A stretch of DNA of 32,000 nt from Candidatus Iainarchaeum sp. (GTDB lineage: Archaea > Iainarchaeota > Iainarchaeia > Iainarchaeales > CSSED10-239): positions 60,001-92,000 of the forward strand of contig JAQVTI010000001.1 of NCBI GenBank assembly GCA_028700115.1. Direction: 5' to 3'. Below the pieces are notes generated by a model. It was not told the DNA's origin. It ran no database searches and saw nothing but the letters and a program-made list of their open reading frames with translations. Of the stretch, positions 6,689 through 24,654 are shown in pieces; within the stretch, counting starts at the first letter, position 1; every line of letters starts with the position of its first letter. A program made the translations under genes and the position numbers.

Positions 6689-7075
6689 TTATTGATTAAT
6701 TTTAGATTTAATATAAGTAGAAGATATACCTTTAGTTCTAGATAAATAAACTATCTCACAATAAGGTTTTAAAAAATTAAATTTATCTTTCCAATCATCA
6801 CCCATAAAAAAAACATCAACATTATATTTTTTAACATCTTTAATTTTTTGATTCCAAGTATTTTCTGGAATAACTTTATCAACATATTTAATAGAACTTA
6901 ATAATTCTTTTCTGATTTTATAATTATAAAAACTAGTTTTATTTTTTAACTTATTAAATTCATCCGTAGATAAAGCAACAATTAAAAAATCAACTTTAGA
7001 TTTTGCTCTTTTTAATAAACGTACATGTCCATAATGCAAAATATCAAAAGTACCATAAGTAATACCTATTTTCAT
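6689..7075 (-). CDS. tagD: Glycerol-3-phosphate cytidylyltransferase (CDP-glycerol synthesis)
   Basis: 128 aa. GTFDILHYGHVRLLKRAK (HxGH motif), ALSTDEFN, IKYVDKVIPENTWNQK, FFMGDDWKDKFNFL and RTKGISST closely follow TagD/TarD. Confidence 0.9.
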   Translation of the reverse strand: MKIGITYGTFDILHYGHVRLLKRAKSKVDFLIVALSTDEFNKLKNKTSFYNYKIRKELLSSIKYVDKVIPENTWNQKIKDVKKYNVDVFFMGDDWKDKFNFLKPYCEIVYLSRTKGISSTYIKSKINQ

Positions 7076-8253: not shown

Positions 8254-8257
8254 AAAA

Positions 8258-9160
8258 TCAAATCTTTATTTTCTTTAATAATTTTAAAAATAAACCAAAT
8301 AAATTTAATTTATAATATTTTTTAGAAATAAAATTATCTACAAAAATATTTCTTAAAAATACATCGGGATGTATATAAATATTTAATATTCTATTATCTT
8401 GTTTTACACTATTAATAGTGTGAGTAGAATCAACCCCAAAACCAATATTTTTAACTAAATCATATTTAGGTTGAATAGATAAGCCATTATTTACCCAAAT
8501 ATTATATTGCCATATATAAGCCCAAGTATTAATTTTATTATTTTTTACAAGATTAAATATATATCTCCAATATAATCTATCTAATAATCTATTATTAATT
8601 AATTTAAAAAATTTATTTTTCTTAAATTCATTATAATTAGACATATTAATATCATATTTGTTCCAAGCTCTTCTCCAAGAAGCCCAACCCCAAATATGCG
8701 CATATTTTGAAAAAAAATAATCTGAATCAATATATTTTTTTCTAATTTTATCATTAATAAAGGTATTTCCTGAAAGAATCATTATTCTATCATCATCTTT
8801 ATATCTAACTAAAAGTTCTTTACAATATTTAAAAAAACTATTATTAGGTAAACAATCATCTTCTAAAATAATACCCATTTCTTCATTTTTAAAAAACCAA
8901 GTAATTGCAGAAGAAACTGCAAGTTTACAACCTAAGTTTTTTTTTCTATATAAAGTTTTAACTTTACAATCCCAATCTATTTTTGAAACAATTTTTTTAA
9001 CTTCATCATTTTTTTTAAGATCATCCAAATTATTTTCTCTAGGACCATCTGCAGCAATATAAAGTTTTTTAGGTTTCATACTTCTAATTTTTGCAAAAAC
9101 TTTCTTAGTTGTATCAGGTCTATTGAAAATTAAAAATAATATAGGAATATCATAACTCAT
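8258..9160 (-). CDS. GT-A fold glycosyltransferase of the HlpA-like (hemolytic protein HlpA-like) family
   Basis: ILFLIFNRPDTTKKVFAKIRSMKPKKLYIAADGPR, DWDCKV, NLGCKLAVSSAITWFF, ILEDDCLP and DDDRIMILSG match this family. The likely start is ATG 9160 (MSYDIP); the track start at 9169 is a GTG. Confidence 0.75.
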   Translation of the reverse strand: MSYDIPILFLIFNRPDTTKKVFAKIRSMKPKKLYIAADGPRENNLDDLKKNDEVKKIVSKIDWDCKVKTLYRKKNLGCKLAVSSAITWFFKNEEMGIILEDDCLPNNSFFKYCKELLVRYKDDDRIMILSGNTFINDKIRKKYIDSDYFFSKYAHIWGWASWRRAWNKYDINMSNYNEFKKNKFFKLINNRLLDRLYWRYIFNLVKNNKINTWAYIWQYNIWVNNGLSIQPKYDLVKNIGFGVDSTHTINSVKQDNRILNIYIHPDVFLRNIFVDNFISKKYYKLNLFGLFLKLLKKIKI

Positions 9161-9165
9161 AAAAA

Positions 9166-9660
9166 TCACTTAATAACTTTTGCTTTAACTCTTAATTCAA
9201 CAATAATATTTCCAAAAACTCTTTTTAAAGCATTCAAAATTACTTTTGGCAACCATTTAATAAATCTTTGAGGTACAGAAATTAATTCAATAATTTCAAA
9301 TTTTTCTTTTTGAATTATATGATTATAATTTACAAAACCCAAAGTTTGTAACATAGATTTTTCATTAAAAAAATTAACATGTGTAGGATCGGCATACGCA
9401 TAATATGAATTATAATAAGGCACAATTATTTCTACAACACCTTTATTTTTCGAAATTCTCCAAATTTCTTGCATTACTTTTTGAGGATTATTTAAATGTT
9501 CTAAAACATTATCAATTAAAACATAACTAAAAGTATCATCTTTAAATGGATAAGGATATTTTGAAAAATCAAAAGAATTATCTATATTTTTAGCTTTCTG
9601 AAAATCTACATTGACCCATCCTTTTTTAATATCTTTTCCACAACCAAAATTCAATTTCAC
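9166..9660 (-). CDS. Class I SAM-dependent methyltransferase (Methyltransf_11-like)
   Basis: MKLNFGCGKDIKKGWVNVD glycine-rich start, FSYVLIDNVLEHLNNPQKVMQEIWRISKNKGVVEIIVP. Confidence 0.7.
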   Translation of the reverse strand: MKLNFGCGKDIKKGWVNVDFQKAKNIDNSFDFSKYPYPFKDDTFSYVLIDNVLEHLNNPQKVMQEIWRISKNKGVVEIIVPYYNSYYAYADPTHVNFFNEKSMLQTLGFVNYNHIIQKEKFEIIELISVPQRFIKWLPKVILNALKRVFGNIIVELRVKAKVIK

Positions 9661-9666
9661 TAAAAA

Positions 9667-10779
9667 TCACTTACTTTCAAAAATATCAATTAATTTTTCT
9701 TCAGAATAATCTATTAAATAATTATTTAAGAAATATTTTCTAATATATTTAGATTTATTCTTATTCAACTGATTTAATTTAATATAATTAACAAAATCTT
9801 TATAATAACATTTATTAGATATATATCCAAGTTTATTTACAACTATATCTTTTATTGCACCATTATTATAACTTAAAACCGAACACCCACACATATATGC
9901 TTCTAAAATAACTAAAGGAAAACATTCTTTTTCATATTTAGTAGGAAATATTAAATAATTGGATTTTAATAAATAATCATACTTTTTAGATCCATAAATA
10001 GGACCTAAATAATTACAATTTTTTAATTTTAATTTATTTTTTGTAAAATTCCATTTTTCTTTAAATTCATCTGAACTCCAAGCCCCAATAAAATCACAAG
10101 TATATTTTATTTTATTTTTTTCAAGTTCTTTTAAAAAATATAAAACATCTAAAGGACCCTTAGATTTAATCATATTTGATAAATATACAAATTTAATTTG
10201 TTTAGAATCAAATTTATATTTTAAAAATTTATTAAATTTAAATTCACTTATTTCATCTTTAATTCCATTTGGAAGATAAAAAACTTGTTTTTTACTAATA
10301 ACCTTACTAAAACTAGAATATAATAAAGGAGATAATAAAATTACTTTTGTTTTTTTAAATACTTTTTTATAATATTTCTCTAAAGATTTATGTTCAGATA
10401 AATAAAAATTTAATCCTTTGGCATGAAAATGTATAAAAATATCTTTTCTAAATAATTTAGCTAACCAAACATAAATAGAGTCTCTTAAAAAAGCACTTCC
10501 AAAAGGAGCCATTTCCAAATATACTTTATTTGGTCTAAATATAACTAATTTATATAATAATTTAAAAAAAACTCTAAAAACATTAAAAATAGATTTAAAA
10601 TTAAATTTACCTATATCTTTTATATTTGAATAATTATTTAATTTAATATAATTAATATTATATTTTTTATTTATTAATTTACTATTTAAGTAAATATCAT
10701 TCATCTTTGCAGCTCCATGAACAGGAGGTGCAAGTCTTACTAAATATAATATTTTTTTCTTTTTTACCAAATATATCAC
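9667..10779 (-). CDS. Glycosyltransferase family 4 (GT-B fold)
   Basis: N-terminal KILYLVRLAPPVHGAAK and C-terminal FPTKYEKECFPLVILEAYMCGCSVLS (E-x7-E-like region). There is no ATG near the conserved N-terminus. The GTG at 10779 forms a GTGA overlap with the upstream stop. Confidence 0.75.
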   Translation of the reverse strand: MIYLVKKKKILYLVRLAPPVHGAAKMNDIYLNSKLINKKYNINYIKLNNYSNIKDIGKFNFKSIFNVFRVFFKLLYKLVIFRPNKVYLEMAPFGSAFLRDSIYVWLAKLFRKDIFIHFHAKGLNFYLSEHKSLEKYYKKVFKKTKVILLSPLLYSSFSKVISKKQVFYLPNGIKDEISEFKFNKFLKYKFDSKQIKFVYLSNMIKSKGPLDVLYFLKELEKNKIKYTCDFIGAWSSDEFKEKWNFTKNKLKLKNCNYLGPIYGSKKYDYLLKSNYLIFPTKYEKECFPLVILEAYMCGCSVLSYNNGAIKDIVVNKLGYISNKCYYKDFVNYIKLNQLNKNKSKYIRKYFLNNYLIDYSEEKLIDIFESK

Positions 10780-11495
10780 TTAAAATCTTTTAATTTTAAA
10801 GAAAATATAAAAATAAATCCTTTAATACTATTTATTACTTTTTTAAAAGAATGTTTAAAATCAGTAACTAATCTATAAAACCACTCAAAACCAATCTTTT
10901 GTATAAATTTAGGTGCATGTTTCTTTTTATTTGAAATAAAATCAAAACCAGCACCTACATTAAATATGAATTTAACTTTAACAATATTAAATAAATCATT
11001 TGCTAAGATTTCTTGTTTAGGATTACCAATACCAATCCAAAGGTAGTCACATTTTGAAGCATTTATCTTTTTAGACATTTTTGATATTTCATTTTTATTA
11101 AATTTAATTGTATCTTTAATAAATGGAGGATTATAATAAGATATATTTTTTATAAGTATATTAAATTTCTTAGAAATTAAAGAAACTTCTTTTTCACCTA
11201 AATTACCTAGTAAAAAATGCTTTTTCTTTTTAAAATAATTATCAGATAAAATTTGTTCAAAAAAATAAGGACCTTGTATTCTTTTAACTTTTTTAAAATT
11301 AATAATAGATAAATAAGCAGATATTGGAAATCCATCTATAAAATTAAAATTATTTTTATTATTTATAGAATTATAAAATAATTTATTTGTATTATATAAA
11401 TATAAACTATACATATTTAAAAAATTAAAAATTACTTTTTTATCTTTTTTAATATATTTTTTTAAATAATTTATATTTGATCTATAAAACAACAT
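10776..11495 (-). CDS. WecB/TagA/CpsF family glycosyltransferase (GT26)
   Basis: FNFLNMYSL, IDGFPI, KRIQGPYFF, WIGIGNPKQE, NVGAGFDF, HAPKFIQKIGFEWFYRL follow the GT26 consensus order. Confidence 0.8.
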   Translation of the reverse strand: MLFYRSNINYLKKYIKKDKKVIFNFLNMYSLYLYNTNKLFYNSINNKNNFNFIDGFPISAYLSIINFKKVKRIQGPYFFEQILSDNYFKKKKHFLLGNLGEKEVSLISKKFNILIKNISYYNPPFIKDTIKFNKNEISKMSKKINASKCDYLWIGIGNPKQEILANDLFNIVKVKFIFNVGAGFDFISNKKKHAPKFIQKIGFEWFYRLVTDFKHSFKKVINSIKGFIFIFSLKLKDFK

Positions 11496-11499
11496 ATAA

Positions 11500-12984
11500 T
11501 CATTTTTTTCTAAATTTATTTATAATTGGATTTATTAAAAATAAAATTTCTTTTATTCTAATATACTTGAAAAGGAAAATACATATAAAGTATATTAATC
11601 CTCCAATAACAGCATATCCTAAAACATTAAGTGAATTTTGTAAAAAAATTATATTAAGAATATCTTTTATTAAAAATATACCTAAAAGCATAATAATTCC
11701 AGAAACAAAAGGAACTATTAAATTTCTAAAGAAATTTGTTTGTTTTAAAATATCTTTTCTAAATTTATAATAAACACCTATAAAAATAATAACTTCTGAA
11801 ATAATTGTTGTAATTCCTGCACCTATAATCCCAAATAAAGGAATTGCAATAAAATTTAATAAAACATTTACAATTGATGCAATTAAAACCATCTTAAATT
11901 GGTATCTTTGATAATCATAAACATTTAATGAATTATTAAATATTTGATTAATTGCATTAAATAAGAAAAACAACATAATTAATTTAAATGCAATATTTCC
12001 TAAAACAAAATCTTTTCCAAAAACTAATAAAATTATTTCTTTTGATAAAAATATAGATCCAAAACATAAAGGTACTGCTAAAGTTAAAACTACTTTTGTA
12101 AATTTATTAAAAATATCTTTAAATTGCTTTTTTGATTTTGTAGCAATTGAAAGTTGTGGAAAAAAAGTTGTGGAAAAAATTGCAATTACTCCAATCATAA
12201 ATCCATAAAATGAATAACCTATAGAATAAAGTCCTACTTGATAATCATTTATAAAAAGAGAAATCATAAATCTATCAAAATTAAAATAAATTAAACCAAA
12301 AAGTCCAGAAAGTGCAAATGGCCAAAATATCTTAGATTTTTCTTTAATAAAATTAACATCTAATTTTGGTTTAAATTTAATTCTATTTTTAAAAAACTTC
12401 ACAAAATTATATAATATAAATATTAATCCTAATATAGAACCTAAAACATAAGATAAAGAAACTCCTAATACACCTTTATTTAAATAAATAACAAATAATA
12501 ATCCTATAACTATGCCTAATTTCAAAATAATTTCTCTTATTGATTCGTATTTCATCTTCTCAAAAGCATTTAAAAAATTTCCAAAATAACCAGAAAATGA
12601 TTGAATCATATTAAAAAAAATAAAAACTATAATTAATGCTTTTACAATGAAAGGTTTATTTAAAAATAAAGAAACTAAATAAACTATTATTCCAAATAAA
12701 AATATACAAATTAGTTTTAAATAGAAAAAATTATTAAAATATAAATTTAATAACTTTTTATTTTTAGAAACATCTCTAAAAATAAGAACTCCTAAACCTA
12801 TATTTGCAATTATAGAAAATATTCCAACAAAAGAAAGTGCAAAATTTAACTGACCATATCCAGTTACACCTAAATATCTAGGAATTAATGTAATTGTTAC
12901 AATAGATAATAAATATACAAATATTTTTGAAAAAGTAAGCCAACCTATGTTTTTGGCAATAGTTTTCTTATCTTCTATTTCCAT
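11500..12984 (-). CDS. Wzx-type oligosaccharide flippase (MOP superfamily, polysaccharide biosynthesis protein)
   Basis: 494 aa and hydrophobic throughout (about 12-14 helices). The N-terminus KNIGWLTFSKIFVYLLSIVTITLIPRYLGVTGYGQ is typical of Wzx/RfbX proteins. Confidence 0.75.
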   Translation of the reverse strand: MEIEDKKTIAKNIGWLTFSKIFVYLLSIVTITLIPRYLGVTGYGQLNFALSFVGIFSIIANIGLGVLIFRDVSKNKKLLNLYFNNFFYLKLICIFLFGIIVYLVSLFLNKPFIVKALIIVFIFFNMIQSFSGYFGNFLNAFEKMKYESIREIILKLGIVIGLLFVIYLNKGVLGVSLSYVLGSILGLIFILYNFVKFFKNRIKFKPKLDVNFIKEKSKIFWPFALSGLFGLIYFNFDRFMISLFINDYQVGLYSIGYSFYGFMIGVIAIFSTTFFPQLSIATKSKKQFKDIFNKFTKVVLTLAVPLCFGSIFLSKEIILLVFGKDFVLGNIAFKLIMLFFLFNAINQIFNNSLNVYDYQRYQFKMVLIASIVNVLLNFIAIPLFGIIGAGITTIISEVIIFIGVYYKFRKDILKQTNFFRNLIVPFVSGIIMLLGIFLIKDILNIIFLQNSLNVLGYAVIGGLIYFICIFLFKYIRIKEILFLINPIINKFRKK

Positions 12985-13028
12985 AATAATAAATTAGATA
13001 TATAAATATATTTAAACTATATTATTTT

Positions 13029-14471
13029 ATGAATTACAAAAATATACTTTCATTTATTGAGAAAAATAAACTTACAATAATTCTAATTATTATAGGTATT
13101 CTCTCTATTATATATGCATTAATACAATATATGCCATACTGGGATGAAGGAGTATACACTAGTAATGGAAAATATATATTCTCAAACACAGAAAAGTTAA
13201 CATATGAATACCAAAGACCACCTGTTATGAGTCTAATAATAGGTTTTTTCTGGAAAATTAGTTTAAATGAATTTATATTTTCTAAACTTACTTTAATTAT
13301 TATATTTTTACTAGGACTTTTTGCTTTATATAAAATAGCAGAAGATATAAAAAAAGGCTCAGGAGTAATTACAACTTTACTTTTTGCATCATGTGCTACA
13401 ATTTCCTTTTACACAAATAGATTGCTTACAAGTATTCCTGGAACTTCTCTTGCAATCATAGGATATTATCTATATACTAAAAAGAAATATTATCAATCTG
13501 GTTTGTTATTTGCCCTAGGTTTCTTATTTAGATATACTTCTCCTTTAATGTTTATTGTAATTGGTATATTTTTAGTAATTGAATTAATTAAATATCATAA
13601 AAGAAAAAATATTTTTAATATTTTAAAATATGGTTTAGGTTTTGCAACTTTAGTTTTTCCTTTTATGTTAATCAATGCATTTACTTTAGATTTAAATCAT
13701 TCTTTTATTAAAAAAATGATAGTGCCTTTTTTAGATGCATCTAACATGGTTGCTGCAAATTCTTTTGATTTAGTAAACTCTGGATTAGTATACTATATAA
13801 AGTTCTTATTTACTCAAAATCTATTTATTGTATTTTTTATAATTTTTATAGTATTTTTATTTATAAAAAAAGAATTTAGAACAAATAAAATAATTATACC
13901 ATTTATTACTTCTTTAGTTTATTTATTATATCTTTCAAGCATAGTACACTATGAACCTAGATATTTTATTGTAGCTCTTCCTTATTTTGCAATAATTTCA
14001 GGATTTGTAATAACTTATTTTTTAAAAAATATAAAAATAAGAAGAATTTTAGAAATTGTTTTAATAGTTTTAACAGTTATTGTTTTTATTGGATGCATGC
14101 AAGTCCAGATAAATATAAACTACGGAACTGAGTTTGAAAAAATTGAAAACTATTATTCATATGTTATAAACAATGATTCTGACTATAATGGAATTATAGG
14201 AATTGATAATCCTGTTTTTGGAGTATATAATAGTAATAATAATGTATTCTATCTTGCAGGTCCAGAATATGCAGAAAATAGACTAAATAAATACAGACCT
14301 GTTAAATATTTATTGTTTGAAGAAAGAAGCTTTGAATGTTGGAAAGAAAATGATACAGTTTGTGAAAAACAAGTAGAAAGCTTTAATAGTTTAATAGAAA
14401 AAGAATATGATTTAGTTTATACATCAAATTTCCAAGGAACAGATCATTTCATATACAAACTAAAAGAATAA
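13029..14471 (+). CDS. GT-C fold integral membrane glycosyltransferase (ArnT/PMT family-39-like)
   Basis: 480 aa and polytopic. The acidic motif YWDEGVY lies right after the first helix, like the loop-1 DE motif of PMT/ArnT enzymes. The C-terminal region of about 110 aa is soluble. Confidence 0.55.
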   Translation: MNYKNILSFIEKNKLTIILIIIGILSIIYALIQYMPYWDEGVYTSNGKYIFSNTEKLTYEYQRPPVMSLIIGFFWKISLNEFIFSKLTLIIIFLLGLFALYKIAEDIKKGSGVITTLLFASCATISFYTNRLLTSIPGTSLAIIGYYLYTKKKYYQSGLLFALGFLFRYTSPLMFIVIGIFLVIELIKYHKRKNIFNILKYGLGFATLVFPFMLINAFTLDLNHSFIKKMIVPFLDASNMVAANSFDLVNSGLVYYIKFLFTQNLFIVFFIIFIVFLFIKKEFRTNKIIIPFITSLVYLLYLSSIVHYEPRYFIVALPYFAIISGFVITYFLKNIKIRRILEIVLIVLTVIVFIGCMQVQININYGTEFEKIENYYSYVINNDSDYNGIIGIDNPVFGVYNSNNNVFYLAGPEYAENRLNKYRPVKYLLFEERSFECWKENDTVCEKQVESFNSLIEKEYDLVYTSNFQGTDHFIYKLKE

Positions 14472-14474
14472 GAT

Positions 14475-15218
14475 TTATTTTTTATAAATCTTATATTTCT
14501 TAATACCCCATTTTGTTAAAAGGTATTTAATTAATTCACCAAATATAGAAAATCCATATTGAAATGATGATTTTAGATCAATTGAAGATGCATCATCAAA
14601 ATATCTTGTCTCAACTGGAATTTCTCTTATTCTAAATCTTTTTGAAATTACTTGAATTATAATTTGTGTATCAAAAACAAAATTATTTGAGTTTTTTTCA
14701 TATGGAATAGATTCAAGTAATTCTTTTGACCAAGATCTATATCCTGTATGAAATTCACTTAAGTTACTTCTTAAAACTAGATTTTCTATAAAAGTTAAAA
14801 TTCTATTTCCTATATATTTATACTTAGGCATTCCACCTTTTATAGGATCTCTTGCATATAAAAATCTAGATGCAAAAACTGCACTTGCAGTTCCGTTTGC
14901 AATTGGAGAAATCATATCTTCTAAAATTCTAGGATCATACTGATAATCTGGATGAACCATAACTACAATATCAGCACCTCTTTTTAGGGCTTCTTTATAA
15001 CAAGTCTTTTGATTCCCACCATAACCTGTGTTTTTTTTATGAATTATAGTTGTAAGTTTAAGTTTTCTTGCAAGTTTAGCGGTTCCATCTTTAGAACAGT
15101 CATCAACTAATATCATTTCATCTACAAACTTTTTAGGAATATCTTTTACTGTTTGTTCAAGTGTTTTTTCTGCATTGTATGCTGGAAAAACTACTGCAAC
15201 TTTTTTACCTTTATACAT
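14475..15218 (-). CDS. GT2 polyprenyl/dolichyl-phosphate hexosyltransferase (GtrB/DPM1/ArnC-like)
   Basis: VAVVFPAYNAEKTLEQTV, ILVDDCSKDGT, VVMVHPDYQYDP and FHTGYRSW. 247 aa with no C-terminal TM helices. Confidence 0.8.
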   Translation of the reverse strand: MYKGKKVAVVFPAYNAEKTLEQTVKDIPKKFVDEMILVDDCSKDGTAKLARKLKLTTIIHKKNTGYGGNQKTCYKEALKRGADIVVMVHPDYQYDPRILEDMISPIANGTASAVFASRFLYARDPIKGGMPKYKYIGNRILTFIENLVLRSNLSEFHTGYRSWSKELLESIPYEKNSNNFVFDTQIIIQVISKRFRIREIPVETRYFDDASSIDLKSSFQYGFSIFGELIKYLLTKWGIKKYKIYKK

Positions 15219-15301
15219 ATTACATCATTTTTTAAAAACATTTATTAATTAGTAAATATAATATTTATTAGTAAACAAATATAAAACAAACGGAAAGAAA
15301 A

Positions 15302-15742
15302 ATGAAACAAAACATATTAGATAAAATATTTGATATTTTAGAAAAGCATTTCAAATTTTTTAAACATTTTAGAAAAATTGGAAAATATTTATTTTTTTCT
15401 GTAATTGCAACTCTAGTTGATATTGTTTGTTTGTATATATTTACTGAGTTTCTAAATGTATTCTATTTAGTTTCAGCAAGTTTATCTTATTGTGTAGGTA
15501 TGGTTATTGCCTTTTTTGGAAATAAGAAATATACTTTTGAAAATAAAACTGATAAGAAAAACATAACTAAATTTATTGAGTTTACTATAATTTCTTTAAT
15601 TGGTTTAGTACTAAATATTATTTTAATTAAAATATTTACAGAAAATCTAGGTTTATGGTATATCTTATCAAAAATAATTACAGTTGTAATTATATTCTTT
15701 GCAAAATATATTGCACATAAAAAAATAGTTTTTAGAAATTAA
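15302..15742 (+). CDS. GtrA-family small membrane protein
   Basis: 146 aa with four hydrophobic helices. YLFFSVIATLVDIVCLYIFTE... and the C-terminal FFAKYIAHKKIVF are typical of the GtrA family. Confidence 0.75.
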   Translation: MKQNILDKIFDILEKHFKFFKHFRKIGKYLFFSVIATLVDIVCLYIFTEFLNVFYLVSASLSYCVGMVIAFFGNKKYTFENKTDKKNITKFIEFTIISLIGLVLNIILIKIFTENLGLWYILSKIITVVIIFFAKYIAHKKIVFRN

Positions 15743-15743
15743 A

Positions 15744-15887
15744 TTATTTTAAATTAAAAACGACTCCTAAAAATCCAATTACCCCAAATAAAGCAGCAAC
15801 CCATCCATATAAATAAAATGGATTTGCTAATATATAAATTGCTATAAATAAAAAAACTATACTAATTAATAAACTTTTAATATCCAC
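15744..15887 (-). CDS. Putative 47-aa two-helix membrane peptide (not in the ORF track)
   Basis: Hand translation gives (GTG)MDIKSLLISIVFLFIAIYILANPFYLYGWVAALFGVIGFLGVVFNLK*. The GTG starts 1 nt after the upstream TAG, and GGGAG lies 8 nt upstream. No homology is recognised. Confidence 0.3.
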   Translation of the reverse strand: MDIKSLLISIVFLFIAIYILANPFYLYGWVAALFGVIGFLGVVFNLK

Positions 15888-15888
15888 A

Positions 15889-16452
15889 CTAATCACTCCC
15901 ACTTAAATATTTTTTATTAATATAATCTTCAAAATCATTAATTCCCATTATATCAATATCTCTAAATGGAAGATTATAATTAGAATAATATTTTTTATAA
16001 ATATCTTCACAAGTAAAAAAATCAGCTAAATTATCAGTAAATATAATATTTACAAATTTATTAGAATCTTTTTCATTTTGTTCTAAAAAATAAATTATCA
16101 TATCATCAAAATCAAATCCTTCTCTTTCTAATTCATACTATTCTAAAATTATATTTTTTTGAAGAGCATTTAATTTTGAAAATTCTAAGAAATCATCTGA
16201 AAAATAACACTTAAATTCTTTTTCATCAAAATACAAATTATACTTATTTATTATAAATTTAATTTCATTAAAAATTTTATCATTAACTTTAAATAATAAT
16301 TTATCGAAACCAGATATAGTTGAAAAAATATTTTTTATTTTTTCCATTTTTATAAATTCATTATTTAAAGGAGTCATTCCTGAATCAGACTGATAATTAA
16401 AAATCCATATATTAGTATCTACTAAAACAATATCTTTTCTATCTACAGTCAT
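15889..16452 (-). pseudogene. PIN-domain nuclease gene interrupted by a single in-frame TAG (ORFs 16138..16452 and 15889..16101 share one frame)
   Basis: The N-terminal ORF has IVLVDTNIWIF, which is PIN strand 1 with the first acidic residue. After the TAG at 16138-16140 the frame stays open (YELEREGFDFDD) into the second ORF. That ORF carries NIIFTDNLADFF, resembling the distal PIN acidic motif. Confidence 0.5.
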
Positions 16453-16671
16453 AATTAACTCCGAACTTATAATTAAAATATATTTAATAAATATAATTAT
16501 GTATAGTAAACTTTAAAAGTATATCTTATAGTATATAAAGTTAAGGATATATTTCAAATAATAATAACTTATATATATAACTTTCTATTTAAAAAAAATA
16601 AATACAAACATTTATAAACAATATAATACATAATTATTATACTAAATTATAATAAAAAAATTTGATTTTTT

Positions 16672-17637
16672 ATGGCAATTAAAAAAGATATTTTAAATTA
16701 TATAATAAATAACCCTAGTCTAACTTCTAAACAAATTATTCAAAATAACAAATATACAGAAATAACTATTAAAAAAATTATATTTGAACTTCTAGAAGAA
16801 AAACAAATAAAGTTAGAAAATGGAAAATATTATTCTATAAACTATATAGACAATAAAAAACAAATTATAGATAAAGATACATTTTTTGGAATATATGTAA
16901 AACAAGAACATAAAGATATAATTAAATATTTATTTAGAGAAATTAGAAATAATTGGATAAAATATAATAATAAAGAACCAGACAATACACAAATATATAA
17001 AATACTTGTAGAAATAAATAATATTTCAGAAAAAATAGATTTACCTATTGTATGGTATAAATTTGGACAAATACCAGTTATTAGTTATAATATAAACGAT
17101 TTAGAAAATATAAAAGAAATAAATGGAATAAATTCAAAAGATATAATAAAAAGTATATTTAAAAATTTAAAAAGAACTTCAAAAGAAATTAAACTTAAAC
17201 AATACACTTCAGGATCTACAAACATGCACACAATTTATTCTTTTAAAGAAAGAATTATTGAAAGATTCTTTAGAAATGATTTTAAATTCATAAAAGATAA
17301 CTTCAAAATATTTTTTAAAAAATTACCATACATGAAAGATCCAAATAAAACTCTAAATAGATTTTATGAATTTATCTGTATGTACAACAAACTAGATAAA
17401 AATAAACAAATAAATCCTAAATATAAAGATTTATTTAATAAATTATTTACATCTTTTTGGAACATAGTTGCAATTTATAATTTCAAACATGATATAAAAA
17501 ATTATTATATAAAAAATAACATAGATATAAATATAGATAATAATTTTAAATTTAAATTACAAATGGAAGTTGAAGAATTTAATAATTTACTATCTTTATT
17601 TGAAACAGAATATTTATCTACAGAAAATAGTTTTTAA
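16672..17637 (+). CDS. Hypothetical protein with an N-terminal winged-helix DNA-binding-like domain
   Basis: The first ~55 aa (KKDILNYIINNPSLTSKQIIQNNKYTEITIKKIIFELLEEKQIKLENGKYYSI) fit a wHTH pattern (H1-H2-H3-wing). The rest is unrecognised. Confidence 0.5.
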   Translation: MAIKKDILNYIINNPSLTSKQIIQNNKYTEITIKKIIFELLEEKQIKLENGKYYSINYIDNKKQIIDKDTFFGIYVKQEHKDIIKYLFREIRNNWIKYNNKEPDNTQIYKILVEINNISEKIDLPIVWYKFGQIPVISYNINDLENIKEINGINSKDIIKSIFKNLKRTSKEIKLKQYTSGSTNMHTIYSFKERIIERFFRNDFKFIKDNFKIFFKKLPYMKDPNKTLNRFYEFICMYNKLDKNKQINPKYKDLFNKLFTSFWNIVAIYNFKHDIKNYYIKNNIDINIDNNFKFKLQMEVEEFNNLLSLFETEYLSTENSF

Positions 17638-17701
17638 AAAAATTTATAAACATATATATCTTCTTATAATATAATTACAAAAATATATTTTTAGATAAAT
17701 T

Positions 17702-20113
17702 ATGGATTATATAGACTGGATTAGTTCCTTTGCAATATTTATATTAGTTTTAATAACTTTATTTCTAGCTATACCTAATCTTTTACCAAACCTAGATTTC
17801 TCACAAAACAACTTAGTTGCAGAAAATGCAATGTCTGAAATAACCCAAACAATTGATTCTTATAAAATATATTCTGGAGAAGAATATAAACCTTTTTTTA
17901 TAAAAGATGTAAACTCAAGAGCAGATACTCTTTCATATATTGAAAATAATAACACATATGGTGTTTTTTATGAAAATGCAAATGCATATTCTCTTGAGAC
18001 TATAAATGAATCTTATCTAAATAAAGAAATTCTAATTCTAGAAGAAAGCTTTTCAGATAATAATTATACAGATAGCTTAAGTCTGTCTTCTGGAAATATA
18101 GTAATTGAGGAAAATAAATTAAAATTAGAACAAAATAGCGTAATTGAAACAAATGATAATTATTTTAATTTTATATTAAATTTTGAATTTACTGGAAATG
18201 ATATAAATCTAATTACAAACTATCAAGATTCTTCAAACTATATTCTTTTTGAAATTACAAATGAAGAAATTAATATTTATGAAAATAGTTTATCTACTTT
18301 AACTCTTTTAAACACAAAAGAAATAAACTTACAAAATACTTCTAAAGATATAGAAATTATTTCAGAAAAAGAATATGTAAATATAAAAATTGAAGAATTT
18401 GAAGAAAATTATATTTTTAGTTCTGAACTAGAAGAAGGTAAAATAAGATTTATTGGAATTGATAACAATTCTACAATAGATAATATTTCAATTTATAAAA
18501 TACCATATATAAAAACAGAAATGGATGATAGTTTATCTGGATCAAATATAATAAATGAAAAAATATATACACAAAATCTAATTTTAGATTTTAATCTACA
18601 AACAAAACAAGCAAGAGTAATACCTTACCAAGATGATACTGAACTAGTTAATTTAGACTTTAGTTTTGATGAAAACATGTATATCCCAAATCTAAATGGA
18701 AAAATACCTATTTTAGAAAATGAAAGTTATGAAGAAAAATTAATTTTATTTCCAGAAACTAAAGAGTTTTGGATAGATAACACAATGGATATTAATTTTA
18801 ATTTAAATAATTTTAAAACCTCAAATGATTACAATTATGATTTAGAAACAATTGAAACTAGTTATAATAATTTTTATAAATTACCATTTAAAGAATCAAC
18901 AAATAATTATTATTTAGTCTTTAACTCACAGGATTATTATGGAAATAATATAGATTGTAATTATGAAGTTATATCAGACACATTAAATATAAATAGTTGT
19001 GAAGAAAATGGATTTATTAAAGTTAGATATGGCTTAACAACTGAAATTGAAGAAAGCTATACAAATCCTAAAATTATAAAAACAAAAAAAGAAATTATTT
19101 CTCAAGAAAAAATAGATTCTGAAATTCTAGTAAATGATTCTAAATTAGATTACTGGATTGAAAATAATGCAGATGATTCTTATTATATATGGACAAAGGT
19201 TAGTGTTCCTGCAAATCAAACAAAAAAACTAAGACTTACAAAAAATATTGGAAAAAAAGCAAATGGAAATAAAGTTTTTGAAATGTTTGATGATTTTAAT
19301 AAAACTTATTTAGATTTATATACATGGAACACAACAATTACAGATAAAAACACAATAAATAATTTATTAGAAATTTCTGATGAAGATGCATATGTTTTAA
19401 ATAAAAATTACATCTTTGAAGATGGAATAATTGAGTTTAAATCTTTAACTGATTCAAGTAATGCAAAATCAAATTTAACTATAAAAGAAAAAGAATATAC
19501 AAAAATGCACGGTTATTTATTAAAATACACAACTGGTGGGGATTTTTTAAGAATAACTTATAGAAATCCATTTACATACGACACAATTGAAGAATATACT
19601 TATAATTTTACAGAAAATATAAATTATAATCTTAGATTAGATATAATAGATAATAATTATACAGGATATATAAATAATACACAAGCTCTATCAGGACAAG
19701 ATACAACATATAAAAAAGGTTTAATTGGTTTTAATACACAAGAACTAAATAGTGGGTCATACTTTTATGATTATATATTTGTTAGAAAATATATAGATAC
19801 AGAGCCTACAATAGAAGTTACAGATAAAGATATTTATTATGAAATTACAATTACAAACAACTCAGAAGAAAATTTAGAAAATTATCAAATTAAAATACCA
19901 AACACAACAATTGGAGTAACTTCTAAAACAGATTATCTAGAAATTACACCAATTGGTGAAGAATATAATTTTAAAATTTATAAAAATAATAAATTAGTTA
20001 CAGAAAAAGGTAACTTTAGAAAAAACACATCTAAAATATATGAAAACTATTTTAATTTTTTAAATAAAAATGGTAAAAATGAAATTATTAAAATTAATAT
20101 AAAAGAAAACTAA
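17702..20113 (+). CDS. Large N-terminally anchored surface protein with LamG/concanavalin-like modules and a DUF2341-like segment
   Basis: N-terminal helix ISSFAIFILVLITLFLAI. LDYWIENNADDSYYIWTKVSVPANQTKKLRLT resembles the DUF2341 core. It is followed immediately by VFEMFDDFNKTYLDLYTWNT, the usual start of a LamG-like jelly roll. An earlier ESFSDNNYTD...GNIVIEENKLKL segment looks like a second such module. Confidence 0.6.
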   Translation: MDYIDWISSFAIFILVLITLFLAIPNLLPNLDFSQNNLVAENAMSEITQTIDSYKIYSGEEYKPFFIKDVNSRADTLSYIENNNTYGVFYENANAYSLETINESYLNKEILILEESFSDNNYTDSLSLSSGNIVIEENKLKLEQNSVIETNDNYFNFILNFEFTGNDINLITNYQDSSNYILFEITNEEINIYENSLSTLTLLNTKEINLQNTSKDIEIISEKEYVNIKIEEFEENYIFSSELEEGKIRFIGIDNNSTIDNISIYKIPYIKTEMDDSLSGSNIINEKIYTQNLILDFNLQTKQARVIPYQDDTELVNLDFSFDENMYIPNLNGKIPILENESYEEKLILFPETKEFWIDNTMDINFNLNNFKTSNDYNYDLETIETSYNNFYKLPFKESTNNYYLVFNSQDYYGNNIDCNYEVISDTLNINSCEENGFIKVRYGLTTEIEESYTNPKIIKTKKEIISQEKIDSEILVNDSKLDYWIENNADDSYYIWTKVSVPANQTKKLRLTKNIGKKANGNKVFEMFDDFNKTYLDLYTWNTTITDKNTINNLLEISDEDAYVLNKNYIFEDGIIEFKSLTDSSNAKSNLTIKEKEYTKMHGYLLKYTTGGDFLRITYRNPFTYDTIEEYTYNFTENINYNLRLDIIDNNYTGYINNTQALSGQDTTYKKGLIGFNTQELNSGSYFYDYIFVRKYIDTEPTIEVTDKDIYYEITITNNSEENLENYQIKIPNTTIGVTSKTDYLEITPIGEEYNFKIYKNNKLVTEKGNFRKNTSKIYENYFNFLNKNGKNEIIKINIKEN

Positions 20114-20143
20114 ATTAAAGTTTTTATAAAAATTTTAAAAAAC

Positions 20144-20308
20144 TTATAAAAAAGATTTTAAAATTAAAATAAAAACTACAAAAACAATAGAAATAATAAT
20201 TACTGCTTCAGGAGAAATCTTTGGACCTGCTGCAGAATCATTAAATTTCATTATCCCAATTGCTGAACTTGGACCTTGTGAATTACTTTTTGTTTGTTTT
20301 AATTTCAT
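20144..20308 (-). CDS. secG: Preprotein translocase subunit Sec61beta (archaeal SecG); not in the ORF track
   Basis: Hand translation gives MKLKQTKSNSQGPSSAIGIMKFNDSAAGPKISPEAVIIISIVFVVFILILKSFL*. The G(I/L)M(K/R)F...GPKISP motif plus a single C-terminal TM helix is the Sec61beta signature. AGGAG lies 7 nt upstream of the ATG. Confidence 0.8.
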   Translation of the reverse strand: MKLKQTKSNSQGPSSAIGIMKFNDSAAGPKISPEAVIIISIVFVVFILILKSFL

Positions 20309-20435
20309 AAAAAAACTCCTAAATATAAATTATTTATAACTTTTAAAAACAAGTCTAAAATATATATGAATGAAAATTATTAAATACCTTTTCTTCTTAT
20401 ATAGATATATAAAAATATAAAAAAGGAATAAATAT

Positions 20436-21413
20436 ATGGATAAAAAGAAAAAAAAACTATTTTATAAAATATTTTCTGTAATTATATTAATAATTATATT
20501 ACTTATACTTCTTGTGTGGACAGGAAATATAAGATGCAGTAAAATTCCAGGAATGTGTTCTATTTATTGGGGGACCCAAAGTTTAATTTCTGGAAAACAA
20601 CAACCATCTATTATGATTATACATGATCCTTTTCAAAAAGAAGGAATGGGAAATCCATATCTTTTACAAAAATATCTTAAAGAAGGAACAAATAGTAGAA
20701 TAAATTCAACTTTAGAAAATATTAATTATATAAGTCAAGATAAACTTAAAGGGGTTAGTCTTATAATAGTTGATAAAGCAAAAAAAATATCTACAAATCA
20801 ACTAGAAATGTTTATTGATTATATCTCAAAAGGAGGTAGGCTTATTTGGATAGGAGATAGTGGAACTGAAAAAGATATAAATGATAAATTTTTAACAAAA
20901 GGAGATTTAGAAGCAAGCTTTGATAAAAATATTATAAATCCATGGGCTAGATTAAATTCAGAAAATTATATGATTAGATTTGATGACATCTTAGGAGTAG
21001 AATATATTTCTAATTATTGTGATATTAAAAAATGTAGTAAAAAAACATATGAAATAATACAAGGTCAAAAAACAGAATATTTCTCTCCAGAACAATATAA
21101 TGGAAATTTAATACCTACAAAAAATCATCCATTAACATATGCATTAAATGATTATTTAAAAATTAAAGATGATTTTTCTATAGTTACAGTAAAAGGATCA
21201 AAAATAATTCCATTAAAACTAGATTATGGATCAAATATTTATGCAAATTCAACACAAGAAATTGGGGATCAAAGCATTTTTCCTTTAATAGTTGTTAGTA
21301 ATTCAAACAGAGTAGCATACTATTCAATACCTCCAGAGTATTTTGTTGAAAATGAAGATAAAGAAAAATATACTTCAATTATTGAAAACATAATAGATGG
21401 GATGTTAAAATGA
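20436..21413 (+). CDS. N-terminally anchored extracytoplasmic protein, function unknown
   Basis: Lys-rich start then helix IFSVIILIIILLILLVW. The segment VSLIIVDKAKKISTNQLEMFIDYISKGGRLIWIGDSG is reminiscent of alpha/beta domains in uncharacterised exported proteins. An ATGA overlap links it to the next gene. Confidence 0.6.
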   Translation: MDKKKKKLFYKIFSVIILIIILLILLVWTGNIRCSKIPGMCSIYWGTQSLISGKQQPSIMIIHDPFQKEGMGNPYLLQKYLKEGTNSRINSTLENINYISQDKLKGVSLIIVDKAKKISTNQLEMFIDYISKGGRLIWIGDSGTEKDINDKFLTKGDLEASFDKNIINPWARLNSENYMIRFDDILGVEYISNYCDIKKCSKKTYEIIQGQKTEYFSPEQYNGNLIPTKNHPLTYALNDYLKIKDDFSIVTVKGSKIIPLKLDYGSNIYANSTQEIGDQSIFPLIVVSNSNRVAYYSIPPEYFVENEDKEKYTSIIENIIDGMLK

Positions 21414-21778
21414 TAAAAACCTTAGAAGCAGTTATTGCAATAACTATTCTATTATTATTTTTTTTAACAATATCACAAACAATTGACTTCTCAAAAACAA
21501 AAACAAATACACTAGAAAAAAATATATCTAAATATGTACAAATAAATGCAGAAAAAGATGAATTTAGACAATTAATAGAATCTAAAAATTCTGAAGAAAT
21601 ATATAATACTATATTTAAAAATATAGAAAATAATTATTCTGTTAGTGTTTGTGACTTTTTAAATAATGATTGTAATTCTTATAATATCATAGATCAAAAT
21701 GGATTTACAATAAAATATATAGATTACTATTTTTATGATATTAATAAAGTTCTAAATATAGGTGTGTGGATCAAATGA
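21410..21778 (+). CDS. Putative type IV pilin-like protein (class III signal-peptide-like N-terminus)
   Basis: MIKTLEAVIAITILLLFFLTI has a short polar start, a Glu early in a long hydrophobic helix (LEAVIAI resembles the pilin/pseudopilin N-terminal helix), then a small polar domain. It is translationally coupled on both sides. Confidence 0.4.
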   Translation: MIKTLEAVIAITILLLFFLTISQTIDFSKTKTNTLEKNISKYVQINAEKDEFRQLIESKNSEEIYNTIFKNIENNYSVSVCDFLNNDCNSYNIIDQNGFTIKYIDYYFYDINKVLNIGVWIK

Positions 21779-22227
21779 AAGAAAATGGATTTGCATATAT
21801 ATTTGTTGCAGTTATAATAATAATGTTAATTACAGCTATGCTTTTATTAGAAAAACCAATATATATTAAAGAATATAAAATAAATCATTTAATTGAAAAT
21901 TATAAATCTGAAATTACTTATTTTTTAGAAAATGATTTTAATGAAGAAGATTTAAATAATTTTAATTATAATTTTTATAATTTTATAAAATCTCATAACT
22001 ATAAAATAAAATTATGTACTATAATTAATTCAGACAAAATTTATCTTAGTAATTATCTAGGAGAAGAAGACATACAAATAGGTAATAAAAATACAATTTC
22101 TTTAGCAAAACAAGAAAAAGACTACAATATATTAAATAAATGTGATTTAGATTATAATTCATATCAAAATATAAGTTACTATATTGAAATATATAATACT
22201 GAAGAAAAAATTATTGAAAAAAATTAG
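21775..22227 (+). CDS. Putative type IV pilin-like protein
   Basis: With the ATG at 21775 (ATGA overlap with the upstream TGA) the N-terminus is MKENGFAYIFVAVIIIMLITAMLLL. That is a charged stretch, then Gly, then a hydrophobic helix, like a class III signal peptide. The track start at 21766 is also possible. The gene ends at TAG. Confidence 0.4.
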   Translation: MKENGFAYIFVAVIIIMLITAMLLLEKPIYIKEYKINHLIENYKSEITYFLENDFNEEDLNNFNYNFYNFIKSHNYKIKLCTIINSDKIYLSNYLGEEDIQIGNKNTISLAKQEKDYNILNKCDLDYNSYQNISYYIEIYNTEEKIIEKN

Positions 22228-22308
22228 TGTTAAATAAAAGATAAGTTTATAAAGAAAATGATATATATTTATTTTATAATATTATATAATATATTAAAGG
22301 TGAATGTA

Positions 22309-22659
22309 ATGACAGAAACAATAGAAATAATAAATATAATAGAACAAAAAAGTAATGAAATTACAGCAAAATTAGAAATATTAAGAACATTAGAAGAACA
22401 AAAAATAGGAATAGATGAAGATATTAAAAAAGCAAAAGATAAACTAAAAAATGAAGATATAAATAAATTTACATATGGAAAAATGCAAGAAATAAATCAA
22501 AAAAATCTAGAAGAAAATACAAATGAAAGAAAAAAAATATGGAATGAAATTGCAGATCATATAAATATGATAAGTGATAGATTAAATATTTTAAAAGAAA
22601 ACTATAATAAAAAAGCAGAAATTCAAGATACACCAAAGATTGTAGAAGAAAAAAAATAA
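22309..22659 (+). CDS. Small coiled-coil protein, function unknown
   Basis: The likely start is ATG 22309 (MTETIEII...), preceded by AAAGGTGA. The track start at 22258 adds an implausible 17-aa Ile/Tyr-rich leader read from the promoter region. Confidence 0.6.
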   Translation: MTETIEIINIIEQKSNEITAKLEILRTLEEQKIGIDEDIKKAKDKLKNEDINKFTYGKMQEINQKNLEENTNERKKIWNEIADHINMISDRLNILKENYNKKAEIQDTPKIVEEKK

Positions 22660-22692
22660 ATCTCGAAATAAAAGGGCATGCAAAGATGAAAT

Positions 22693-24654
22693 ATGAATTT
22701 TCCTTTAAAAAAAGATCTAAAAATCTTAAATGAAACTATAAAAAAATTGAAAGATCTAGAGATATCTAGAAATTCTTTAGATCAAGAAACTTTTTCTAAA
22801 CTTATAGAAAATAAAATTTCTATAAAAGAATATCTTGAAAAAACAAAAAATATAAGTTCAAATTCTAAAAAAATAGATCAAAAAGCAAAAGATTTATTTA
22901 TAGAATATAATAACATATTTTCAAAAATAATTACATATATGGGATATAAAAAAACAAAAAAATATATACTTAAACAAAAAAATTTCTTTGAAAAAGTATT
23001 TAAGAAAAAAGAAAATCCTATAATTAAAGAAAAAAATAAAATAGAAAATATTAAAAAAATTGAAAAACCAAAAAGAAAAAAAAATATATTTTCAAATTTA
23101 TTTAAGAAAAAAATAGAAATTATTGGAGTTAATACAATTGAAAAACCAGAACCTATTTTTGAAGTCCCAAAAGAACTTCTTCCTGAAAATTATCAGGTTT
23201 TAATAAAAGGATTTTCATATGCCTTTGTAAATGAAGAAAATGGAGATAAAGTTTATTTTGTTGCAGAACCAGAATTAAATAAAAAAGAAGTTGAAATTCT
23301 AGAACAAACTAAAAATGAACTAATAAATAAAATTTCAATTACAGATTTAAATAATGAAAGTCAAATGTATACTTTAATAGATAAAATATTTAAAAAAAAT
23401 AATATTTCTTTAGAAAAAGTAACAAAAGATAAAATTGTATATTATATTATTAGACAAGTAAGTGGGCTTGATAGAATAGAACCTTTAATGCATGATAATT
23501 TAATTGAAGATATTGAATGTAATGGAATGAATTCTCCAATATATATAGTTCATAGAAAATATGGACATATTGTTACAAACATAATGTTTCATACTGAAAA
23601 AGAACTTCAAGACTTTATTATTAAAATGGCACATTTAAGTAAAAGTTATGTTTCATATGCATCACCTTTATTAGATTCTATACTTCCAGATGGATCTAGA
23701 GTAAATGCAACATTAACATCAAATGTATCTACTAGAGGACCAACTTTTACAATTAGAAAATTCCCACAAAAGCCATTAACAACAATAGATCTTGTAAAAA
23801 GCAAAACTATTACTTCAACAATTGTAGCATATCTTTGGACATTAATAGAATTTAAAAAAAATATTATATTAATAGGACCTACTGCTGGTGGAAAAACAAC
23901 TCTTTTAAATGTTATCTCATCATTTATTCCATCTGCTCAAAGAGTTGTATCAATAGAAGACACAAGAGAAATTAATCTTTTAATGGATAATTGGATACCA
24001 CAAGTTACAAGACCTGGATTTGGACCACCTGATTCTACTGGAAAAAGATATGGTGAAATAAATATGGAAGATTTATTAAAAGAATCATTCAGACAAAGAC
24101 CAGATTATTTAATAATTGGTGAAGTAAGAGGAGTAGAAATGGCTCTTATGTTTCAAGGAATGGCATCTGGACATAGTTCTTTATCAACAGTTCACTCAAA
24201 AAGTTTAGAATCTTTAATTATAAGACTTACAACACCCCCAATTTCGTTAGACCCATCATTAATTACAAGCTTAGATGCAGTAATTATTACAGGATTTACA
24301 GGAACAGGAAATCTTATAAAAAGAGAAGTTAAAGAAATTGACGAGGTTAGAAATTATAATACAATTACAAAAAAAGTAGAATATAATATATTATATAAAT
24401 CAAGCCAAGAATATAAAGATAACACTATGACTGGAAAAAGTGATCTTTTTACAAAAGATATACCATTAATATATAATAGTGATCTTATAAAAGAAATTGC
24501 AGAAGAACACAATCTAAAAAGAGAAACAATATATCAATTAGTTGTAAAAAGAAAAGAATTTATTGAAAGCTTAATCCCAAATCCTCCAAAAGATTATATA
24601 GAATTTAAAAAAATAATTAATAACTATAAAAAAACAGAAAATGTTGACATATAA
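22693..24654 (+). CDS. Type II/IV secretion-family ATPase (archaeal FlaI/ArlI / PilB-type) with a Lys-rich N-terminal extension of about 165 aa
   Basis: Walker A GPTAGGKTT (23875-23901), Asp box VSIEDTREI, Walker B PDYLIIGEVRG and His box GHSSLSTVHS. The FlaI-type N-domain YAFVNEENGDKVYFVAEPELNKKE is also present. Confidence 0.9.
   Translation: MNFPLKKDLKILNETIKKLKDLEISRNSLDQETFSKLIENKISIKEYLEKTKNISSNSKKIDQKAKDLFIEYNNIFSKIITYMGYKKTKKYILKQKNFFEKVFKKKENPIIKEKNKIENIKKIEKPKRKKNIFSNLFKKKIEIIGVNTIEKPEPIFEVPKELLPENYQVLIKGFSYAFVNEENGDKVYFVAEPELNKKEVEILEQTKNELINKISITDLNNESQMYTLIDKIFKKNNISLEKVTKDKIVYYIIRQVSGLDRIEPLMHDNLIEDIECNGMNSPIYIVHRKYGHIVTNIMFHTEKELQDFIIKMAHLSKSYVSYASPLLDSILPDGSRVNATLTSNVSTRGPTFTIRKFPQKPLTTIDLVKSKTITSTIVAYLWTLIEFKKNIILIGPTAGGKTTLLNVISSFIPSAQRVVSIEDTREINLLMDNWIPQVTRPGFGPPDSTGKRYGEINMEDLLKESFRQRPDYLIIGEVRGVEMALMFQGMASGHSSLSTVHSKSLESLIIRLTTPPISLDPSLITSLDAVIITGFTGTGNLIKREVKEIDEVRNYNTITKKVEYNILYKSSQEYKDNTMTGKSDLFTKDIPLIYNSDLIKEIAEEHNLKRETIYQLVVKRKEFIESLIPNPPKDYIEFKKIINNYKKTENVDI

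Follow-up and report, generated by a model that had tools for sequence, protein, structure and literature searches.

The genome of Candidatus Iainarchaeum sp. (assembly GCA_028700115.1, here G000; 0.96 Mb in 47 contigs) carries on contig JAQVTI010000001.1 (C38) a group of genes that encodes a type IV filament ATPase, pilin-related proteins and a large surface protein, and that has no platform gene beside it. The stretch analysed comprises positions 60,001 to 92,000 of this contig (32,000 nucleotides, G+C content ~20%) and is called the window in the following; coordinates given without a contig refer to it. We consider it likely that this group and a second locus on contig C26, which encodes a two-gene platform and PilA-like pilins, are the two halves of one type IV pilus system, encoded ancestrally by a single operon that later came apart. 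Moreover, two pilin-family proteins encoded in the window half have lost the class III leader that their relatives in other DPANN archaea carry.

The assembly ATPase is encoded at 22693..24654 on the + strand. It is a FlaI/GspE2-type protein of 653 aa with an N-terminal extension of ~170 aa, which matches the Pfam T2SSE family (E 8e-33) and the NCBIfam FlaI model (316 bits, under the model cut-off of 550). Its closest match in the PDB is the GspE2-type ATPase of Archaeoglobus (2oap, E 2.9e-91), ahead of FlaI (4ii7). With its catalytic motifs intact, the Walker A motif GPTAGGKTT and the Asp and His boxes being invariant among the orthologues, the enzyme is predicted to be active. Upstream on the same strand lie the genes for an 803-aa protein, a leaderless, pilin-headed candidate adhesin (17702..20113), the membrane-anchored protein p325 (20436..21413), the leaderless minor-pilin-like protein p122 (21410..21778), the minor-pilin-like protein p153, which retains a class III leader (21775..22227), and a small cytoplasmic coiled-coil protein of ~117 aa (22306..22659). 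The original prediction, made from the window alone, had described these open reading frames (ORFs), including the ATGA overlaps between p325 and p122 and between p122 and p153, and had read them as a surface-filament or adhesion-like locus in which two of the small proteins have pilin-like N-termini; our verification of the gene models and overlaps agrees with this description, and our homology searches support an adhesion-type type IV filament locus whose small proteins are relatives of pilins. The linkage of the genes also holds in relatives, as the gene order is identical in all 11 family-mate genomes compared over the full locus. For the coiled-coil gene, annotated as the ORF 22258-22659, comparison with 11 orthologues indicates that the true start is probably Met17 (22306). 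Its product is 43–72% identical in family mates and 31% in genome G037, and the gene always lies directly upstream of the ATPase gene. A search of the other DPANN loci described below with a hidden Markov model (HMM) of this protein gave no significant homologue, and no relatives were detected beyond the family and G037.

Neither a platform nor a prepilin peptidase is encoded in the window, as had been pointed out before, and our searches for T2SSF and Peptidase_A24 domains likewise gave no significant match there (best T2SSF E 0.28). The proposal built on this absence, an attachment apparatus of non-canonical composition, is contradicted by the remainder of the genome, which encodes three A24 peptidases and, on C26, a platform orthologous to genes that adjoin the ATPase gene elsewhere. 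In total, G000 contains four T2SSE matches above the Pfam cut-off, T2SSF matches at five sites (four above the cut-off) and the three A24 peptidases (two above the cut-off), which are located on C24, C40 and C1 and are linked to neither half-locus. A complete operon composed of an ATPase, two platform halves, KGQ-type pilins and an A24 peptidase is present on C40, and C1 harbors two further partial pilus gene sets. Two ATPases are orphans, namely the one in the window and a second one at C38:160508, and so are two platforms, the two-gene platform at C26:16291-18008 and a 746-aa protein on C25. The C26 platform consists of one T2SSF domain in each of two genes (C26:17133-18008 and C26:16291-17130) and is not adjoined by an ATPase gene. 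Next to it are three genes for PilA-like pilins with the N-termini MKQKG↓ISPLIATILL, NKKG↓ISPLIATVLL and KKS↓ISPLIATVLI (the arrow marks the end of the leader), whose Pfam matches to Pilin_N and Arch_flagellin remain under the cut-off. As for the other two orphans, the ATPase at C38:160508-162817 comprises 769 aa with a Cys-rich N-terminus, and the 746-aa platform at C25:25391-27631 is followed by KAQ and KGQ pilins; these two may form another split pair.

We assign the C26 platform to the window ATPase with good confidence, since gene adjacency in related families, orthology and phyletic distribution all point to this pairing. In G032 and G037, which represent two further families of the order, T2SSF genes (E 1e-12 to 1e-16) come directly after the orthologous ATPase gene (56% and 49% identity, respectively). 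The top matches of these T2SSF genes in G000 are the two C26 halves (40–41% identity, E 1e-58 to 1e-65), the next best match reaching 23%. Within the family, 19 of the 21 genomes encode an orthologue of the ATPase at 57–73% identity and a twentieth encodes a fragment; apart from the orthologues in G032 and G037, all remaining matches in our comparison of 41 genomes are at paralogue level (at most ~40% identity). The C26-type platform occurs in 19 of the 21 family genomes as well as in G032 and G037, and the 18 other families sampled do not have it; G007 is the only family genome that has neither ATPase nor C26-type platform. The gene order of both half-loci is conserved across the family, with the C26 half consisting of the two-gene platform and three or four PilA-like major pilins; the ATPase is never found in the platform locus and the platform never in the ATPase locus. 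The distance between the two amounts to 223 kb in G004, where both are on one contig, 218 kb in G002 and 195 kb in G015. Genes for type IV filaments are scattered in Nanobdellati, but ATPase and platform are usually near each other (Sivabalasarma & Albers 2026, PMC13705601), and the split is thus a less common arrangement.

The likely origin of this arrangement is indicated by other DPANN archaea. Scanning GTDB species genomes with a profile of the ATPase, and annotating the loci with HMMs built from the window family, yielded ~30 loci from Woese-, Pace-, Nano- and Aenigmatarchaeota with ATPases of 40–55% identity (e.g. L064, L070, L087 and L110). In Woese-, Pace- and Nanoarchaeota a single operon recurs that encodes a p153-like protein, three to four pilins of the type KG↓VSPLIATVL, the ATPase, which is sometimes followed by a small ORF, the two platform proteins platN and platC, a protein of 230–285 aa termed bigN, and a p122-like protein. 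Since the parts shared with this operon are distributed over the window locus and the C26 locus, the latter two represent two pieces of one known machine type: the ATPase clade, the split two-gene platform, the PilA-like pilins and the p153, bigN and p122 families are common to both. In the other DPANN archaea, however, everything is contained in one operon and every pilin-family protein carries a class III leader, whereas the system of the window is split and has two leaderless members; moreover, its bigN protein has acquired large adhesin modules, and the p325 and coiled-coil genes are extra. The uncharacterised DPANN operon falls within the census of archaeal type IV filaments (Makarova et al. 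2016, PMC4858521; Sivabalasarma & Albers 2026, PMC13705601). The window system is hence a member of a widespread, uncharacterised DPANN pilus type, and its split is a rearrangement. As a separate observation, a small ORF of 53–66 aa recurs between the ATPase gene and platN in Pace- and Woesearchaeota operons (L066, L071, L072, L074, L075, L078, L085, L086, L088 and L110); several of these ORFs give very weak matches to the coiled-coil HMM (E 0.4–6), which are too weak to use.

The phylogeny of the ATPase is in line with this placement. In a quick maximum-likelihood tree (IQ-TREE, with Shimodaira–Hasegawa-like approximate likelihood ratio test supports; composed of sequences other than published named references), the window ATPase forms a group with its family, G037 and G032 (support 100), which lies within a clade of DPANN sequences (90) whose next neighbor is a sequence of Conexivisphaera (99). 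The ATPase of the C40 operon branches with those of Iainarchaeota metagenome-assembled genomes, Methanobacteriaceae and Thermococcus (86). A canonical operon of ATPase, platform, pilins and peptidase does exist elsewhere in the genome, on C40, but the window ATPase is not a member of some unrelated secretion family and instead groups with a DPANN-wide clade of pilus ATPases. Methanothermobacteria have a single secretion ATPase, which has been placed in the Epd-type clade 1 (Makarova et al. 2016, PMC4858521). Since it is the C40 ATPase and not the window ATPase that groups with Methanobacteriaceae, the window system is probably outside the Epd/System 1 type. We also attempted to assign the ATPase to one of the numbered clades of the latter study, the outcome being limited to its position outside the Methanobacteriaceae/C40 group. 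Two side observations concern the same tree. A 943-aa T2SSE-ATPase-like protein with a degenerate Walker A motif (G000, C1:30352-33183), encoded in one of the two partial gene sets on C1, forms a long branch inside the DPANN clade of the window ATPase, and two contigs labelled 'uncultured Methanosarcinales archaeon' (L062 and L065) carry pilus loci of the Woesearchaeota type and group with Woesearchaeota; mislabelling or contamination is the probable explanation for these two bins.

A class III leader that is cleaved off is regarded as the hallmark of type IV filament subunits. Two of the small proteins had been credited with pilin-like N-termini, which needs a correction: only p153 has one of the cleavable type, and p122 has the N-terminus of a mature pilin and no leader. 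The leader of p153 reads MKENG↓FAYIF in G000 and [KR]G↓FTYII in the orthologues, with G5 nearly invariant and F6, C81 and C123 invariant. The p153 HMM matches leader-bearing proteins that head the pilus operons of Woese- and Pacearchaeota. A class III leader in the usual sense, a short, basic segment that ends in [KR][GAS] and is cleaved by the prepilin peptidase, is missing from p122 and the 803-aa protein. The N-terminus of p122, M-I-K-T-L-E-A, conforms to the pattern M-[IT]-K-[ST]-x-E. This pattern is shared by all 12 family genomes and by G037; of 28 close database homologues, 26 show it and the other two are N-terminally truncated. E6, R53, C81 and C88 are invariant. In Woese- and Pacearchaeota the homologues of p122 start with MVNKRG↓YMKTLEAV, MVNRKG↓YIKTIEAV or MENKA↓WIKIAEAF, and in a joint alignment the sequences of the window family are short of exactly the leader, their Met occupying the +1 position. 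A profile search of 1.84 billion cluster representatives identified 1868 members (50%-identity clusters) of the p122 family. Among the best 146 of these 1868 matches, 128 have a leader of the form [KR][GA]↓[WY]x[KR]xxEA and 16 have Met exactly at +1. No Pfam model was found that covers this family, and searches of Pfam and NCBIfam with p122, its leader-bearing homologues, p153, p325 and bigN-type proteins returned no curated family. The consensus of the family is [KR][GA]↓W-[IL]-R-I-[LV]-E-A, and some members have 290–465 aa with extra C-terminal domains, one example being the PEBP domain at the C-terminus of P0085.

A similar picture emerges for the 803-aa protein, which starts with M-D-Y-I-D-W, the pattern in the family and G037 being M-[DEQH]-[YH]-[IV]-D-W. 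The bigN proteins of other DPANN archaea begin with MNKKG↓LSYIDW, MKKG↓ASHVDW or MNKRG↓SHVGV, and a profile-profile comparison with the ~230–285-aa bigN proteins of Woese- and Pacearchaeota (hhalign probability 93.6%, E 2e-7) places residue 2 of the 803-aa family on residue 7 of bigN. In both families the upstream region supports the assigned start. Taking both genes together, an in-frame stop codon precedes the Met by 1–9 codons in every one of the 12 family genomes (by 2–9 codons for p122, and by 2 codons for the 803-aa gene of G000). In G037 the distance is 16 codons for p122 and 6 codons for the large protein. No alternative start codon occurs between stop codon and Met of either gene in the family genomes. 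Judged from these sequence data, p122 and the 803-aa protein are leaderless, and the leader has been lost from genuine pilin-family proteins. An intermediate state is apparent in G032, with a leader of three residues (MAG↓TRTFEA). In G037 the proteins are leaderless and the platform is still adjacent to the ATPase, which suggests that the loss of the leader probably preceded the split of the operon, the order being read from an unrooted comparison. A search of open-access papers for leaderless type IV pilins found no publication.

The AlphaFold2 model of p122 (predicted local distance difference test score, pLDDT, 84) features an N-terminal helix of 46 residues (2–47) followed by two short helices and a four-stranded antiparallel sheet, a predicted topology that is pilin-like. 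In the 803-aa protein an N-terminal hydrophobic helix precedes a variable ectodomain. Of the earlier label LamG/DUF2341 for this protein, the second part holds (Pfam DUF2341, E 1.9e-10), and the first applies to orthologues only, as Laminin_G_3 is not detected in the protein itself; a sequence search against the PDB gave no match. The orthologues range from 510 to 2211 aa and contain DUF2341, Laminin_G_3, FG-GAP or 3-keto-disaccharide-hydrolase-like modules, a pattern as would be expected for a variable adhesin on a conserved handle. Elsewhere in G000, at C24:3916-5361, we noted a leader-bearing modular pilin of 481 aa, in which the canonical leader KKGQ↓SEVISYV is fused to DUF2341 and Laminin_G_3. 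The remaining ectoprotein of the locus, p325, has only 33 homologues among 5.8 billion proteins. Its AlphaFold2 model (pLDDT 86, predicted template modelling score 0.82) places a flavodoxin-like domain behind an N-terminal membrane helix. For this domain Foldseek retrieved the ThuA-like protein 4jqs (E 1.3e-8), the trimerisation domain of GH42 and the N-terminal (GIFT) domain of IFT52, all at a TM-score of ~0.45; the ectodomain hence resembles ThuA and class I glutamine amidotransferases (GIFT type). The invariance of Cys41, Cys195 and Cys200 suggests that this domain faces outward. Since p325 is absent from the loci of G032 and G037, it is a family-specific accessory.

Taken as one machine, the two half-loci would work as follows. 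The ATPase, perhaps together with the coiled-coil protein, would dock on the C26 platform and power the polymerisation of the C26 pilins. The processed p153 and the proteins that are born mature, p122 and the 803-aa protein, could form a priming, initiation or tip complex, in which the 803-aa protein would present its DUF2341/lectin-type module as an adhesin to a surface or a host cell. The 803-aa protein and the minor pilins may thereby correspond, on the archaeal side, to PilY1 with its minor pilins or to modular pilins; DUF2341 proteins have been proposed as PilY1-like tip adhesins (PMC4858521). As p122 and the 803-aa protein would enter assembly already 'mature', a prepilin peptidase would not be needed for them. 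This last step, that p122 and an adhesin of up to 2211 aa are translated in mature form with Met at +1 and assembled at the tip with no peptidase step, the major pilins still being processed, is a tentative proposal that we hold to be possible rather than probable. If it applies, the family would offer a natural archaeal exception to the leader cleavage rule for type IV filament subunits, with a traceable series from a full leader via the three-residue leader of G032 to no leader.

Several points weigh against the picture as a whole. The pairing of ATPase and platform is based on orthology and co-occurrence in a genome that contains a second orphan ATPase and a second orphan platform, and all genomes compared are metagenome-assembled. 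The detectable homology of the 803-aa protein to leader-bearing proteins spans only its ~55 N-terminal residues, and its M-D-Y-I-D-W terminus has no positive charge, which is awkward for an N-in insertion into the membrane. For p122, a Foldseek search of the model against the PDB gave no significant match (best E 0.37, with ribosomal proteins at E > 0.3), and a pilin fold is accordingly a tentative assignment that draws on its topology and on the homology to leader-bearing proteins. Alternatively, p122 and the 803-aa protein might be derived from pilins and yet stay in the membrane, as base, stator or anchor parts or as plain surface adhesins. Such a role is known for ArlF and ArlG, which are archaellin-like, have no class III signal peptide and act as stator or anchor proteins (PMC8978795); it would also suit the N-terminus of the 803-aa protein with its two acidic residues and no basic one, and the insertion of p325, another N-terminally anchored ectoprotein, between the 803-aa and p122 genes. 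We nevertheless judge a purely membrane-anchored role unlikely. In both families the start Met is located exactly at +1, and the acidic residue that processed homologues conserve is retained as E6 of p122 and D5 of the large protein, which suggests selection for the N-terminus of a mature pilin and not for just any membrane anchor, and both genes are still tightly linked to the ATPase and p153. It is this preserved mature N-terminus that leads us to favor assembly at the tip.

The alternatives that concern the composition of the machine are considerably weaker. With two orphan ATPases and two orphan platforms in the genome, the window ATPase could be shared or paired with the 746-aa C25 platform, the C38:160508 ATPase driving the C26 platform instead, and pairs of ATPase and TadC that possibly serve shared sets of pilins have been discussed (Makarova et al. 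2016, PMC4858521). However, G032, G037 and ~25 other DPANN loci tie the ATPase clade specifically to the C26-type split platform, and the phyletic patterns of ATPase and C26-type platform match, which renders this exchange of partners quite improbable. Least credible of all, and in our view next to excluded, is a self-contained attachment apparatus that works with neither a FlaJ/PilC-type platform nor a prepilin peptidase. The absence of T2SSF and A24 domains from the window speaks for it, as does the fact that a peptidase would be dispensable for two of the three pilin-like proteins; but an orthologous platform exists that co-occurs with the ATPase and adjoins it in sister families and other DPANN archaea, and canonical cleavage sites are retained in p153 and the C26 pilins, in a genome with three A24 peptidases. 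A split pilus operon thus remains the reading that we prefer for the two half-loci.

When compared to characterised systems, the split pilus resembles the Epd pilus of Methanococcus maripaludis (clade 1, PMC4858521; System 1, PMC13705601) in its two separate platform genes, its many minor pilins and the large DUF2341 proteins, which have been proposed as tip adhesins. It differs from the Epd pilus in its ATPase, which in our quick tree lies outside the clade of the Methanobacteriaceae, Thermococcus and C40 ATPases, in its major pilins, which are PilA-like with ~150 aa and not short and Flp-like, and in that neither half-locus encodes a dedicated EppA-type peptidase. The minor-pilin/PilY1 tip complex of Pseudomonas aeruginosa and the modular pilins of Streptococcus sanguinis are alike in concept, as they comprise low-abundance pilin-like primers and a large adhesin, and the adhesin module of the window protein is fused to a pilin-type N-terminus as in the latter. 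These bacterial proteins have no sequence relationship to the window proteins beyond DUF2341 (PMC4858521), all keep their leaders, and PilY1 itself is no pilin. ArlF and ArlG of the archaellum share with p122 and the 803-aa protein that they are pilin- or archaellin-like parts of an archaeal type IV filament machine with no class III signal peptide (PMC8978795), a likeness of description and not of compared sequences. They are, however, the stator or anchor of a rotary machine, and it is for p122 and the 803-aa protein that leader-bearing orthologues make the loss of the leader traceable.

These results have some bearing on how such loci are read. Before a new apparatus is proposed for a DPANN genome in which a pilus ATPase stands alone, orthology should be used to pair this ATPase with a platform at a distant site. 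Tools that depend on the cleavage motif, FlaFind and MacSyFinder models among them, would overlook both p122 and the large adhesin. Orthologues that differ only in the presence or absence of the leader provide a natural experiment on the role of the leader, be it in membrane targeting or in the control of assembly. Prime candidates for molecules of host-cell contact in DPANN archaea are, moreover, the DUF2341, lectin and FG-GAP modules, which vary while the pilin-type handle that carries them is conserved.

The genes surrounding the pilus half-locus are of different kinds. Sec61beta (20144..20308, - strand; Pfam Sec61_beta E 1.8e-9, NCBIfam E 2.7e-11) keeps its position in 10 of the 12 family loci compared and is a housekeeping gene, a conserved antisense neighbor outside the pilus system. 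Downstream of the ATPase follow convergent genes for proteins of 454 and 318 aa. The polytopic 318-aa protein and the 454-aa protein were considered as a divergent platform or other part of the system and rejected: although the genes are syntenic in the family, they are present in G007 and in families with no orthologue of the ATPase, and they are unlinked in G037, so that they are unrelated neighbors, as the original prediction had assumed for the gene that follows the ATPase. Its inclusion of the winged helix-turn-helix (wHTH) gene (16672-17637, + strand) in the locus has to be withdrawn, and we rejected this gene as a regulator of the locus as well, because it is syntenic in 0 of 13 related loci; it has no paralogue in the genome. 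It lies inside a stretch of ~12.6 kb (window ~5100-17700) that none of the relatives examined has at this position. The segment 5101-17637, apparently an insertion beside the adhesin gene, contains mostly glycan-biosynthesis genes; besides the wHTH gene, it encodes methyltransferases, several glycosyltransferases, a CDP-glycerol-transferase-like protein of 393 aa, a cytidylyltransferase of 128 aa, a Wzx-like flippase of 494 aa, a PMT-like protein of 480 aa and GtrA. In G000 the stretch lies between the 803-aa gene and a gene pair at 2753-5097, which in six relatives (G004, G001, G009, G015, G014 and G019) lies directly upstream of the adhesin gene. The pair belongs to no Pfam family and encodes a coiled-coil protein of 277 aa and a protein of 502 aa that combines a single membrane helix with a beta-rich ectodomain; possibly the pair, too, is a conserved neighbor of the pilus half-locus.

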